Positions 442 to 4,476 of a stretch of 4,476 bases of DNA are shown here, one piece after another. The notes beneath the pieces are model-generated. The model was given only the letters and a program-made list of their open reading frames with translations. It searched no databases and had not been told where the DNA came from. Every line of letters begins with the position of its first letter. Position 1 is the stretch's first letter. The translations under genes were made by a program, and so were the position numbers. This DNA comes from a virus (Duplodnaviria; Heunggongvirae; Uroviricota; Caudoviricetes), in the IMG/VR virus record IMGVR_UViG_2734482551_000008. One strand, 5' to 3'.

Positions 442-729
442 TCAATCCTGCTCAAGATTGTAGATGAGTTTATTCTTCAGCAAAAGCAGAAAACCAGCCT
501 TAAAACCAATCTCTTTCAAAACCCGTAATGATGTGACAAATTCGTCCTCACGCAAAATAAAACCGTCCGTCAGAAGTCCATTACAAAAATAAAATAACAC
601 AGCACCGCTCTTCCTTTGTTGAGATTGCAAACATCTAATGCGGCAATGGCTGACAATCGCTCCATTCTCAACGCGCACAGCATAGAGGCCATTTTCACTA
701 AAAATTTCACGCAATTCTTCGATTTTCAT
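442..729 (-). CDS. hypothetical phage protein (95 aa)
   Basis: ORF-track frame; ATG at 727-729 preceded by GGAAGGA (plus 738-744) with 8-nt spacing; stop overlaps the next ORF (ATGA). No family recognised. Confidence 0.5.
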   Translation of the reverse strand: MKIEELREIFSENGLYAVRVENGAIVSHCRIRCLQSQQRKSGAVLFYFCNGLLTDGFILREDEFVTSLRVLKEIGFKAGFLLLLKNKLIYNLEQD

Positions 730-810: not shown

Positions 811-838
811 ATTCTATCTGCGAAGGTGCGCGAATCAA
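811..838 (-). promoter_or_regulatory. sigma70-like promoter candidate for the 442-729 operon (TTGATT-N16-TAGAAT)
   Basis: Minus-strand hexamers TTGATT (plus 833-838) and TAGAAT (plus 811-816) with a 16-nt spacer, downstream of the hok terminator and about 80 nt upstream of the 727-729 start. Hexamer match only. Confidence 0.3.
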
Positions 839-857
839 ATTCACCGGAAATAAACAA

Positions 858-903
858 CAAAAAACCCGCCGAAACGCTGAGAGATCACAGCGATGGGCGG
901 GTT
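858..903 (-). terminator. rho-independent terminator at the 3' end of the hok transcript
   Basis: On the minus strand, stem AACCCGCC (plus 896-903) pairs with GGCGGGTT (plus 863-870); an inner CGCTG/CAGCG stem sits in the loop; the stem is followed by TTTTTTGTTGTTTATTT (plus 859-864 A-run). Confidence 0.6.
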
Positions 904-907
904 AAGT

Positions 908-970
908 GCGGGTGCGTTGAGGATGCCTGACACATCAGAGGTGGGCGGGGATGGGATCAGCTCCCCGCCC
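908..970 (-). promoter_or_regulatory. hok mRNA 3'-UTR structural elements (GC hairpin plus fold-back-inhibition-like element)
   Basis: A 9-bp perfect hairpin lies immediately after the hok stop (GGGCGGGGA at plus 943-951 with TCCCCGCCC at 962-970, 10-nt loop). Plus 908-922 (gcgggtgcgttgagg) is an imperfect inverted repeat of plus 1293-1306 (cctcaagcacccgc) at the predicted 5' end of the hok mRNA, as expected for the 5'/3' fold-back pairing known for hok mRNAs. Confidence 0.45.
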
Positions 971-978
971 GGTCACTC

Positions 979-1134
979 TTACTTCCTGGATTCGTAGTCT
1001 ACGAAGACAGCGACCTCCGTCTGGCCGGTTCGGATTCGTACCTCACAGAGGTCTTTCCTCGTTACCAGTGCCGTCACTATGACGGTTAAACAGATGACGA
1101 TCAGGGCGATTAACATCGCCTTTTGCTGCTTCAT
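979..1134 (-). CDS. hok: Hok/Gef-family type I toxin (51 aa small membrane protein)
   Basis: Translation MKQQKAMLIALIVICLTVIVTALVTRKDLCEVRIRTGQTEVAVFVDYESRK has the Hok family hallmark (single TM helix, then TRKxLCEVxIR...EVAxF..YES), very close to my recollection of chromosomal HokD/Gef. AAGGAG lies 9 nt upstream of the ATG at 1132-1134. The ORF-track 70-aa version uses an upstream in-frame start that I regard as leader sequence. Confidence 0.85.
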   Translation of the reverse strand: MKQQKAMLIALIVICLTVIVTALVTRKDLCEVRIRTGQTEVAVFVDYESRK

Positions 1135-1179
1135 AGCCTGCTTCTCCTTGCCTTTCGGCATGTAAGAGGCTAACCTACA

Positions 1180-1250
1180 TGTGCAAAGCATGAAATTGGC
1201 CTCAGATTAATGTTAAGCGTCTTGCCGGACGCGTAATGTTAACTGGGGCT
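1180..1250 (+). ncRNA. sok: putative Sok-like antisense RNA (position approximate)
   Basis: Inferred only: hok loci encode a short antisense RNA complementary to the hok leader. A possible plus-strand promoter is TTGCCT (1148-1153)-N17-TAACCT (1171-1176). The 3' end and terminator were not convincingly identified, so coordinates are a guess. Confidence 0.2.
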
Positions 1251-1310
1251 TTTCTCTATCTGCCTTTTGGTGTTCATGCCTGAAGCAGATAGCCTCAAGC
1301 ACCCGCAGTC

Positions 1311-1340
1311 ATTCTACTTACCTCGCCAATATGAAATCAA
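1311..1340 (-). promoter_or_regulatory. hok promoter candidate (TTGATT-N18-TAGAAT)
   Basis: Minus-strand -35 TTGATT (plus 1335-1340) and -10 TAGAAT (plus 1311-1316). The predicted start near plus 1300-1305 falls at the GGGTGCTTGAGGC motif, which resembles the 5' end of the plasmid R1 hok mRNA (GGCGCTTGAGGC) as I remember it. Confidence 0.4.
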
Positions 1341-1361: not shown

Positions 1362-2048
1362 TCACTCCTTCTCTTCTTTACCGTAGTGGAGTTGACCAAT
1401 TTTGATAAGAGGGCGTCCCTGAGATTTGCGGTGTAGATTGGTATCGCGCAGAGAATACACACAGCCACAATATTCCTGCTGATAGAATTTTTCGCGCTTG
1501 CTGATTTCAATCATACGGGACGAGCCGCCCTGCTTGCGCCAGTTATAATCCCAGTACACCATGCCCGGATAATGCGCGACGGCTCGCCGCCCACAGTCGT
1601 TAACCTGCTGCATATTTTTCCAGCGTGAAATGCCCAGTGAACTGCTGATCACACTGAAACCATTTTCAGCGGCGTACAGCGCTGTCCGCTCAAAACGCAT
1701 GTCAAAACACATGGTGCAACGGATCCCTCGTTCGGGCTCCCATTCCATTCCTTTGGCTCGTTCAAACCAGTTGTCTGTGTCGTAATCAGCATCAATAAAC
1801 GGCACGCCGTGTTGTTCAGCAAAGCGAATATTCTCATCCTTACGAATTAAATACTCTTTCTGAGGATGAATGTTCGGGTTGTAGAAAAAGATGGTGTAGT
1901 CGATTCCCGAGGCCTGAAGCGCCTCCATCACCTCACCGGAACATGGAGCACAGCAAGAGTGCAGTAGTAGTTTGTTTGCCCCGTTTGGGAGCTCCAATTT
2001 GGGCCGTTTGAAATCAGCAACTGTCATAAATATGTTTATTGGGGTCAT
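1362..2048 (-). CDS. queH: QueH-family (DUF208) epoxyqueuosine reductase homolog, 228 aa
   Basis: Translation carries the cysteine motifs I associate with QueH: [11 protein letters not shown] (C32, C33, C36), RCTMCFDMR (C111, C114) and EYCGCVYS (C194, C196), at typical spacing and length. There is no obvious Shine-Dalgarno before either ATG (2046-2048 or the M8 codon), so the start is uncertain. Confidence 0.8.
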
Positions 2049-3046: not shown

Positions 3047-3688
3047 CTACTTAACAACCCTCGAATGGCTAACATTCGGACGCCAGCTCTCCCAGTTAAA
3101 ATTCACCCAGCGNNNNNNNNNNNNNNNNNNNNNNNNNNNNNNNNNNNNNNNNNNNNNNNNNNNNNNNNNNNNNNNNNNNNNNNNNNNNNNNNNNNNNNNN
3201 NNNNNNNNNNNNNNNNNNNNNNNNNNNNNNNNNNNNNNNNNNNNNNNNNNNNNNNNNNNNNNNNNNNNNNNNNNNNNNNNNNNNNNNNNNNNNNNNNNNN
3301 NNNNNNNNNNNNNNNNNNNNNNNNNGATAGCTGCCGCTAAGTGATTCTTCCCGGTACCAGGTTTTCCGCTGAACGCAAAATTTGTACACCCGGTCATCAG
3401 TTCATCGGCGATGGATTTCGCCTGGCTTAACGCGTATCGCTGGCCGTCGTTCTGCACCTGGTAATTCGCAAACGAGCATTTACGGTGCAACGGCTGGATG
3501 CCTGAGCGATTCAGAATTTTTTCCACCCGCAACTGGCGATTCAGGCGGTTGATCTCCTCGCTACGTTTCTGGCCTTCAGCAAGTTGCCACTCGCGCCACT
3601 CCGCTACCGTTCTGAATGGGGCGGTTACATGTGGCGGGGTCAGTCGGCGGATGCGTTCCAGAACGCCGCCTGTCGCAATATTTTTCAT
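3047..3688 (-). CDS. DnaC-like replicative helicase loader (phage replication protein), interrupted by an assembly gap
   Basis: N-terminal 120 aa align by eye to E. coli DnaC as I recall it (MKN..., NRSGIQPLHRKCSFANY, Walker A FSGKPGTGKNHLAAAI) and the C-terminal tail (WVNFNWESWRP) matches the DnaC C-terminus. The middle of the gene is N (3113-3325), so true length and intactness are unknown. Confidence 0.8.
   Translation of the reverse strand: MKNIATGGVLERIRRLTPPHVTAPFRTVAEWREWQLAEGQKRSEEINRLNRQLRVEKILNRSGIQPLHRKCSFANYQVQNDGQRYALSQAKSIADELMTGCTNFAFSGKPGTGKNHLAAAIXXXXXXXXXXXXXXXXXXXXXXXXXXXXXXXXXXXXXXXXXXXXXXXXXXXXXXXXXXXXXXXXXXXXXXXRWVNFNWESWRPNVSHSRVVK
3113..3325. other. assembly gap (213 N)
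   Basis: Uninterrupted run of n characters, directly seen. ORF-track peptides containing X strings across this interval are artefacts. Confidence 0.98.
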
Positions 3689-4371: not shown

Positions 4372-4476
4372 TGAGGTAGCCTGAGTTTAACGGACACTCC
4401 TTCCTGAAATAGAATGGCATCAGAAGGAGCTAATAATGAGCAGAAAAACCCAACGTTACTCTAAAGAGTTCAAAGC
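4372..4476 (+). mobile_element. left end of an IS3-family insertion sequence (IS600-like), continuing beyond the window
   Basis: A plus-strand gene starts at 4436 (AAGGAG 6 nt upstream) with MSRKTQRYSKEFK..., matching the IS3-family OrfA N-terminal motif (R-x-Y/F-S-x-E-F-K; compare IS911 RNFSAEFK). The preceding 64 nt begin TGAGGTAGCCTGAGTTTAACGGACAC, typical of an IS3-family terminal inverted repeat (5'-TG...). Exact boundary at 4372 is inferred. Confidence 0.6.
4436..4476 (+). CDS. IS3-family transposase OrfA, N-terminal fragment (runs off the window)
   Basis: ATG at 4436 with a strong AAGGAG; the first 13 codons MSRKTQRYSKEFK fit the IS3-family OrfA N-terminal motif. Confidence 0.6.
   Translation, partial: MSRKTQRYSKEFK

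Follow-up and report, generated by a model that had tools for sequence, protein, structure and literature searches.

The toxin-antitoxin locus and its reading frames

The DNA analysed here (the window) is a stretch of 4,476 nucleotides, and all of its substantial ORFs lie on the minus strand. Minus-strand positions 1340 to 858 were found to carry what is, judged from the sequence, a complete and apparently intact hok-family type I toxin-antitoxin locus, located between a QueH-like gene (1362-2048, minus strand) on one side and a 95-aa ORF (442-729, minus strand) on the other. A preliminary description of this DNA had listed a toxin ORF, complementary 5′ and 3′ elements, a GC hairpin, a terminator and a promoter, and each of them was recovered on the minus strand at or close to the place proposed. 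The elements could be followed in their presence, complementarity, energetics and evolutionary conservation, as could the toxin. No IS element, frameshift, truncation or stop codon interrupting the locus was found within 858-1340.

The hok toxin gene (979-1134, minus strand) encodes a peptide of 51 aa, MKQQKAMLIALIVICLTVIVTALVTRKDLCEVRIRTGQTEVAVFVDYESRK, which matches the Pfam family HOK_GEF (PF01848) with 81.1 bits (cutoff 22; E 4e-23) and covers the profile end to end, in agreement with the 51-aa toxin ORF described earlier. The peptide is 98% identical to HokW, from which it differs by one residue, 90% to K-12 HokD, 78% to HokC and 43% to R1-type Hok; an alignment of six toxin sequences, including HokW, HokC, HokB, HokD and R1-type Hok, has 12 invariant columns. 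HokW is a demonstrated toxin, which sokW RNA made from sokW's own promoter neutralises (PMC8621323).

The ORF list also contains a mok reading frame of 70 aa (979-1191, minus strand), which is in frame with hok, ends at the same stop codon and can be aligned with the annotated mokW and mokC; its AUG is at 1191-1189. Two Shine-Dalgarno (SD) sequences were read from the sequence: GAGG (1200-1203, minus strand), 8 nt 5′ of the mok AUG and sequestered in the full-length fold, and AAGGAG (1144-1149, minus strand), 9 nt 5′ of the hok AUG. The CAAGGAG block of the hok SD is invariant or nearly so over 55 homologues.

Promoter, leader and 3′ end of the predicted hok mRNA

A promoter scan found a predicted hok/mok mRNA promoter at 1311-1340 (minus strand), consisting of a -35 hexamer TTGATT (1340-1335), an 18-nt spacer and a -10 hexamer TAGAAT (1316-1311), with 9 of 12 matches. 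The -10 hexamer is at a position common to the hokW, hokC and hokB loci, and the promoter suggested previously is therefore upheld as a candidate. Transcription probably starts at G1304, and not at 1306, since G1304 lies 7 nt past the -10 hexamer and the Rfam model begins there. The predicted full-length hok mRNA is about 445 nt long (860-1304, minus strand), running from G1304 to the U-run past the terminator, with both ends deduced.

Scanning the whole window against Rfam gave a single match, to RF01794 ('sok') at 1129-1304 on the minus strand, with 117 bits (gathering 59; E 4e-27) over model positions 1-157 of 157. The same model scored 113.5 bits at hokW, 118.3 at hokC and 87 at R1-type hok, and it also matched hokB. 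At all reference loci RF01794 sits on the hok-mRNA strand; at K-12 hokC and hokB and at 933W hokW, Sok is annotated on the opposite strand. As a by-product of this work, the Rfam family called 'sok' is thus seen to model the toxin-mRNA leader, not the antisense strand, so the match in the window identifies the leader and not an antisense transcript.

The whole transcript folds at -195.4 kcal/mol, against -138.3 ± 6.0 kcal/mol for shuffled sequences (z = -9.46), and none of 100 shuffles was as good. Past the stop codon, a GC-rich hairpin (943-970, minus strand) of 9 bp with a 10-nt loop was present in all folds, and relatives show a GC hairpin there too; the stems in the window, 943-951 and 962-970, are a perfect inverted repeat with 100% complementarity, exactly the 9-bp GC hairpin noted before.

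The mRNA would end at a predicted intrinsic terminator (858-903, minus strand) with an outer stem AACCCGCC/GGCGGGUU of 8 bp (863-870/896-903), an inner hairpin CGCUG/CAGCG of 5 bp and a run of six T (U6 in the RNA), for which direct folding gave -22.8 kcal/mol, compared to -11.8 kcal/mol for the common short form. The earlier term 'two-level' is apt, and the two-level character is due to a 23-nt insertion in the TTCG loop of the family's usual terminator, which forms the inner hairpin. Close relatives mostly end with AACCCGC-TTCG-GCGGGTTTTT, without the insertion, which was also found in two GTDB loci (L007 and L008; 99.6% identical) and in two FDAARGOS 'E. coli' genomes (100%). Most relatives have a terminator shorter by about 23 nt, so that in the window the 3′ element described below lies further from the 3′ end, and the insertion might also retune the 3′-processing clock. 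A generic scan of 780-1420 reported no terminator. Its absence was rejected on the strength of the direct folding, the scan having missed it because of a loop limit of 8 nt, against a compound loop of 31 nt.

Pairing between the 5′ and 3′ ends

A perfect 9-bp inverted repeat joins 907-915 and 1299-1307. In the MFE fold, the translational activator tac (1293-1304, minus strand; GGGUGCUUGAGG) is the 5′ partner of the fold-back inhibitory element fbi (910-922, minus strand; CCUCAACGCACCC), with 1304-1293 paired to 910-922 over 12 bp and one bulged C at 916; two extra pairs, 1305:909 and 1306:908, would be available only if transcription began at 1306. Folding of the minus-strand transcript, suggested earlier as the check on the 5′/3′ complementarity, thus bore it out. 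When the 14-nt 5′ end was set against the 200 nt past the stop codon, a duplex of -21.5 kcal/mol was obtained, as good as in none of 40 shuffles and at the level of the best values in the family.

Conservation of this pairing was followed in 79 hok loci gathered from species-representative genomes, in which the mRNA 5′ end of each was located by profile search and the best partner of the first 14 nt was sought in the 200 nt past the stop codon. Among 60 distinct loci, the 3′ partner was located 46-58 nt past the stop codon in most, and it changes along with the 5′ end: GGGUGC is matched by GCACCC and GGCGC by GCGCC, GAGG by CCUC and GAGA by UCUC. In a whole-mRNA alignment of 55 sequences, 81% of the tac/fbi cells were paired, compared to 35-57% when the partner was slid by 1-3 columns, and column pair 4:447 was formed in every sequence, by U:A in 28 and by C:G in 27, which is a compensatory change. 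Only the outer six tac/fbi pairs share one register family-wide; a common register for the inner half was rejected on the same alignment, as it differs across subfamilies. The MFE fold of the window, projected onto the 55 sequences, had 67% of its cells paired, and several helices in the coding region were poorly supported, so no claim is made for helices inside the ORF.

Predicted alternative conformations of the mRNA

In the published hok model the RNA has three states: the nascent chain forms a metastable 5′ hairpin; the full-length RNA is closed, tac being bound to fbi and the mok SD sequestered by ucb; and the 3′-trimmed RNA is open, with tac/ucb and mok-SD/dcb pairs (PMC9841398). All three were recovered by folding, as thermodynamic predictions. 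In the predicted nascent hairpin, 1302-1292 pairs with a tac partner at 1276-1286 (minus strand), according to the MFE folds of the first 35-45 nt and of RNAs without fbi; the hairpin of the first 35-45 nt has about -17 kcal/mol, and at 60 nt the MFE structure is tac/ucb. The ucb element (anti-SD of mok; 1245-1254, minus strand) has two predicted partners, the mok SD region while the RNA is full-length and tac once the RNA is open. The MFE structure of the complete RNA joins 1254-1245 to 1192-1203, a segment that includes the mok SD GAGG, and the tac/ucb pairing is given by the Rfam consensus and by an enforced fold. In the open form, dcb (GCCUC; 1166-1170, minus strand) is predicted to pair with the mok SD region GAGGC (1203-1199), as in the third hairpin of the Rfam consensus and in the published model (PMC9841398).

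For the full-length RNA, an enforced open tac/ucb form was 12.4 kcal/mol less stable than the closed form, and once fbi was removed the open form came within 1.6-2.2 kcal/mol of the MFE. The tac/ucb structure had been expected as the MFE of the trimmed RNAs, but ViennaRNA ranks the metastable hairpin first, with a gap within model error. Hence no claim is made here that the open form would be selected on thermodynamic grounds alone.

The predicted Sok antisense RNA

A Sok promoter is predicted at 1148-1176 (plus strand), with -35 TTGCCT (1148-1153), a 17-nt spacer and -10 TAACCT (1171-1176), the latter 7 nt upstream of 1183. The promoter scan gave no plus-strand promoter, TAACCT having 3 of 6 consensus matches and falling under the threshold of the scan, and the Sok promoter was placed by homology instead: the sokW promoter of 933W and Sp5 has the same two hexamers. 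In the Sp5 study, a 'promoter-less' sokW gave no protection and its antitoxin activity was lost (PMC8621323); from the primer sequences we infer that exactly TAACCT was altered in that construct.

In the alignment, the 5′ ends given in three independent annotations, those of sokW, sokC and sokB, coincide at 1183 (plus strand), and the 3′ ends fall at 1253-1259. The predicted Sok RNA of about 75 nt (1183-1257, plus strand) would consist of a 9-nt single-stranded 5′ tail GCAAAGCAU, a long hairpin and UUUUCU, and it folds at -30.2 kcal/mol with the 5′ tail single-stranded, a terminator hairpin and a U-rich end. An antisense RNA had been expected on the plus strand around 1150-1260; its location agrees with our prediction, while its bounds are narrowed to an RNA from 1183 to about 1257 and a promoter at 1148-1176. 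The loop CUUUGCA of the Sok-target hairpin (1182-1188, minus strand), taken from the Rfam structure alignment, is complementary to the Sok 5′ tail, with GCAAAG of the tail facing CUUUGC in the loop of the hairpin that carries the mok AUG.

This loop was the most variable segment of the leader among close relatives. Over nine of them, mean pairwise identity was 0.49 in the tail/loop segment 1188-1183, compared to 0.95 in the ORF, 0.97 in fbi and 0.88 overall, and hok copies that share one genome carry different recognition loops.

Genomic context

Both ends of IS600 were identified in the window, at 1-96 and at 4372-4476, and they are oriented alike. They enclose 4.3 kb that runs collinear with a portion of the replication/nin region of a lambdoid prophage in FDAARGOS_943. 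The DUF1367 and replication genes at the flanks of this segment are truncated, and the lysis and structural genes are missing. The hok locus is thus located in a decayed lambdoid prophage remnant of 4.3 kb flanked by IS600. Among the complete E. coli genomes searched, none shared the IS600 junctions of the window.

The locus itself is common. Matches were found in 4713 of 5426 complete E. coli genomes, the matching genomes having a median of two places each, and a near-full-length copy (at least 80% of the query) was present in 3807 of the 5426, or about 70%. Relatives of the locus were also found on plasmids.

Comparison with named hok systems

The nearest match of the locus is the experimentally proven hokW-mokW-sokW system of the Shiga-toxin phages, to which it is nearly identical: DNA identity with the copy in the Stx2 phages 933W and Sp5 (VT2-Sakai) is about 92% over window positions 900-1324. 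The two have mok in frame, identical Sok promoter hexamers, identical fbi and a leader of the same build, with about 18 nt of additional stem inserted where the Sok hairpin lies. They differ in the Sok tail and target loop, which are GCAAAG/CUUUGC in the window and GUUCAG/CUGAAC in 933W, and therefore may not cross-regulate. Homology to 933W stops just past fbi, 933W being without the terminator of the window, and the -35 region upstream of about 1324 is different as well. The genomic place also differs, the locus being in the replication/nin region beside the QueH-like gene in the window, and at the far end of the phage record, after the very large ORF L0134, in 933W. Phage-borne hokW-sokW was annotated in 933W and characterised by experiment in 2021, when it was shown to belong to the type I toxin-antitoxin systems (PMC8621323).

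R1 hok/sok (parB) is the prototype of the family, is plasmid-borne and acts in post-segregational killing. Its elements follow in the same order as in the window (tac, ucb, Sok target, mok, hok, GC hairpin, fbi and terminator), the Sok promoter has the same position in R1-type loci, and their terminator region is likewise long and GC-rich. R1-type loci differ in the toxin, at the 43% identity given above, and in a longer 5′ hairpin. The R1 tac is GGCGCUU and that of the window GGGUGCUU, with a compensating change in fbi, and the inner half of the R1 tac/fbi helix is in another register.

Of the chromosomal loci of E. coli, hokC (gef)/mokC/sokC has a 78% identical toxin, mokC in frame and the sokC 5′ end at the same base as predicted for the window. 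Its Sok hairpin region does not have the insert of about 18 nt, and it is not prophage-borne; the K-12 copy adjoins IS186, and its fbi is displaced. K-12 hokD (relF) of the Qin prophage resembles the window in its lambdoid prophage context and in its toxin (90%), but is located after relBE and gave no match to the RF01794 leader model; by that test it has no tac, ucb, mok or Sok region, all of which are present in the window. PGAP names the window gene hokD. As K-12 hokD is without a leader match, this name reflects protein similarity only, and a by-product of the comparison is that a gene labelled 'hokD' by the pipeline belongs here to what appears to be a complete hok/mok/sok module, unlike hokD of K-12.

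Proposed mechanism and alternative explanations

The locus very probably operates as described for R1 hok/sok. The promoter at 1340-1311 (minus strand) would yield a stable mRNA of about 445 nt, whose 5′ tac would be held in a local hairpin during synthesis. In the finished RNA, tac (1304-1293) would pair with fbi (922-910) near the 3′ end and ucb (1254-1245) would cover the mok ribosome-binding site, so that neither translation nor Sok binding could take place. Slow 3′ trimming would take off fbi, upon which tac would pair with ucb and the mok ribosome-binding site would shift into the Sok-target hairpin. The unstable Sok RNA of about 75 nt (1183 to about 1257, plus strand) would then dock with GCAAAG of its 5′ tail on the loop CUUUGC, blocking translation of mok and the coupled translation of hok and marking the duplex for RNase III. 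Once Sok synthesis stopped, the 51-aa Hok peptide would be made and would damage the inner membrane. Transcription, 3′ processing, the instability of Sok, toxicity and the physiological role are here presumed for the window locus from its likeness to the systems compared above.

The preliminary description had favoured a functional module over a relic, and had mentioned stabilisation of the prophage and abortive infection as possible roles. Its first point is backed by the toxin family, the mok frame, the Rfam leader, the tac/fbi covariation, the alternative folds and the predicted sokW-like Sok, although we infer that the module is functional from these features and from the 98%-identical tested homologue. 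The two roles are general attributions of the family. In the only direct test of HokW, the closest homologue, a different role was seen: upon RecA-dependent induction of the Sp5 prophage HokW appears, sokW RNA disappears and HokW accumulates in the inner membrane, phage release is about doubled, and the toxin is thus seen to assist lysis and release (PMC8621323). Since the prophage of the window is a fragment flanked by IS600 ends, a phage-linked role is moot in this genome.

One further possibility goes beyond ordinary hok/sok behaviour. The locus may be a specificity variant, its Sok tail and loop being unlike those of hokW-sokW and of co-resident copies, and may also be an addiction module that guards the 4.3-kb remnant; we regard the two taken jointly as rather unlikely. 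If the first were true, co-resident hok/sok modules would be insulated from cross-talk, and if the second were true, the module would have outlived its prophage and, in a Shigella-like genome rich in IS elements, would keep recombination between the direct IS600 copies from deleting the remnant.

Less probable still is that the locus is a decaying relic, complete in appearance but silent or non-toxic like chromosomal hok loci of K-12, several of which Pedersen and Gerdes in 1999 reportedly found to have lost their activity through rearrangement, point mutations or IS elements. The surroundings would fit such decay, with IS600 cutting off the prophage fragment on either side and the related prophage in FDAARGOS_943 full of IS1, IS2 and IS600, as would the unusual 23-nt terminator insertion and the weak Sok -10 hexamer; K-12 hokC (locus L023), whose best 3′ complement is displaced and which adjoins IS186, shows that an IS insertion can remove fbi. 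Within 858-1340, however, the locus is uninterrupted and its regulatory elements are intact and score like those of validated loci (the RF01794 score of 117 bits lies between those of hokW and hokC). The tac/fbi energy equals the best in the family, the toxin is one residue from a proven toxin, and the Sok promoter hexamers are those of the functional sokW promoter, all of which argues against a relic.

It is most improbable that hok is mainly a read-through passenger of the prophage early-right operon, serving as an auxiliary lysis or membrane factor at induction and not as an autonomous toxin-antitoxin system: its neighbours, including the upstream replication, DUF977 and QueH genes, are all on the same strand, the generic scan found no terminator-like site in the stretch from the QueH stop (1362) to the hok promoter, and Sp5 HokW does appear on induction and help phage release (PMC8621323), but hok has its own positionally conserved promoter and the precise 5′ end that the tac switch requires, the same module is found at another place in 933W and Sp5 and on plasmids and so moves as a self-contained unit, and the prophage here is a fragment without lysis and structural genes.

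Significance

Control by RNA conformation has a textbook case in hok/sok, and we conclude that the locus in the window is an ordinary copy of this well-known module, of a kind already known. As the family is thoroughly characterised and its phage subtype has already been tested, the locus has little significance beyond its correct annotation. Minor leads are offered by the insertion in the terminator, by the remnant between IS600 ends and by the variability of the loop; the Sok recognition loop, which varies most in paralogues that are otherwise conserved, is a hint of specificity diversification.

Prophage fragment and source lineage

The window is bordered by two IS600 ends in identical orientation, namely the right end at 1-96 (...GTACACCTCA, ending at 96) and the left end at 4372-4476 (beginning TGAGGTAGCC at 4372), in which orfA starts at 4437 (MSRKTQRYSKEFK). 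The 4.3 kb enclosed by these ends is a prophage fragment, whose DUF1367 gene and replication gene are each cut at an IS600 junction. No match to the IS600 junctions of the window was found in the complete E. coli genomes of the collection.

Among the complete genomes labelled 'E. coli', only FDAARGOS_943 (prophage locus L001) and FDAARGOS_944 were found to contain a locus 100% identical to the window, and in both the prophage is surrounded by numerous copies of IS1, IS2 and IS600. L008, a GTDB locus that is nearly identical, comes from Shigella flexneri. Therefore, the source lineage of the window looks Shigella-like.

A run of 213 masked nucleotides is located at 3113-3325, within the DnaC-like ydaV gene; its counterpart in FDAARGOS_943 is 318 nt long (L001, 11274-11591). 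This may mean that the length of the original stretch was not kept on masking; otherwise, the two sequences differ by 105 nt at this position.

Genetic organization around hok

The QueH gene, encoding epoxyqueuosine reductase (1362-2048, minus strand; PF02677, 221 bits), lies within the prophage early region directly upstream of hok, and E. coli prophages commonly show this QueH-hok arrangement. Directly past the hok terminator, a second promoter-like site (TTGATT-16-TAGAAT; 811-838, minus strand) was found, whose hexamers match those of the hok promoter exactly; it is located upstream of a 95-aa ORF (442-729, minus strand) for which no Pfam match was obtained.

The terminator loop itself (871-895) contains a 23-nt insertion, CCATCGCTGTGATCTCTCAGCGT (minus strand), which lies within the TTCG loop of the family's usual terminator and gives rise to the inner hairpin. 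The only carriers of this insertion seen were the window, the GTDB loci L007 and L008, and the two FDAARGOS genomes.

Enterobacterial-type hok loci were also found, mostly on short contigs, in assemblies labelled Veillonella, Acinetobacter, Xanthomonas, Ferruginibacter, Streptomyces, Oscillibacter, Dysgonomonas and Vagococcus (L010, L022, L027, L036-L038, L054 and L072). These off-taxon loci most likely stem from E. coli or plasmid DNA that contaminated the assemblies or was mis-binned into them.

Predicted antisense RNA and its recognition segment

The Rfam family RF01794 ('sok antitoxin') is oriented as the hok mRNA leader, with its 3' limit at the hok AUG, both in the window (1129-1304) and in the reference hok loci L002-L004 and L006. 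The strand it matches is opposite to that of the annotated sokC, sokB and sokW; therefore, a hit should not be taken to show where, or on which strand, the antisense RNA is encoded.

In the alignment of close hokW-like copies, the Sok recognition segment (Sok 5' tail and target loop, 1183-1188) ranks among the least conserved stretches of the mRNA, with an identity of 0.49 versus 0.88 overall. Moreover, hok copies of the same genome were found to differ in this segment (CTTTG, TCTCA, CTGAA, CTAGA and others). As loops are generally under less constraint, these sequence differences are only a hint that variability of the Sok segment could insulate paralogous hok/sok modules against cross-talk.
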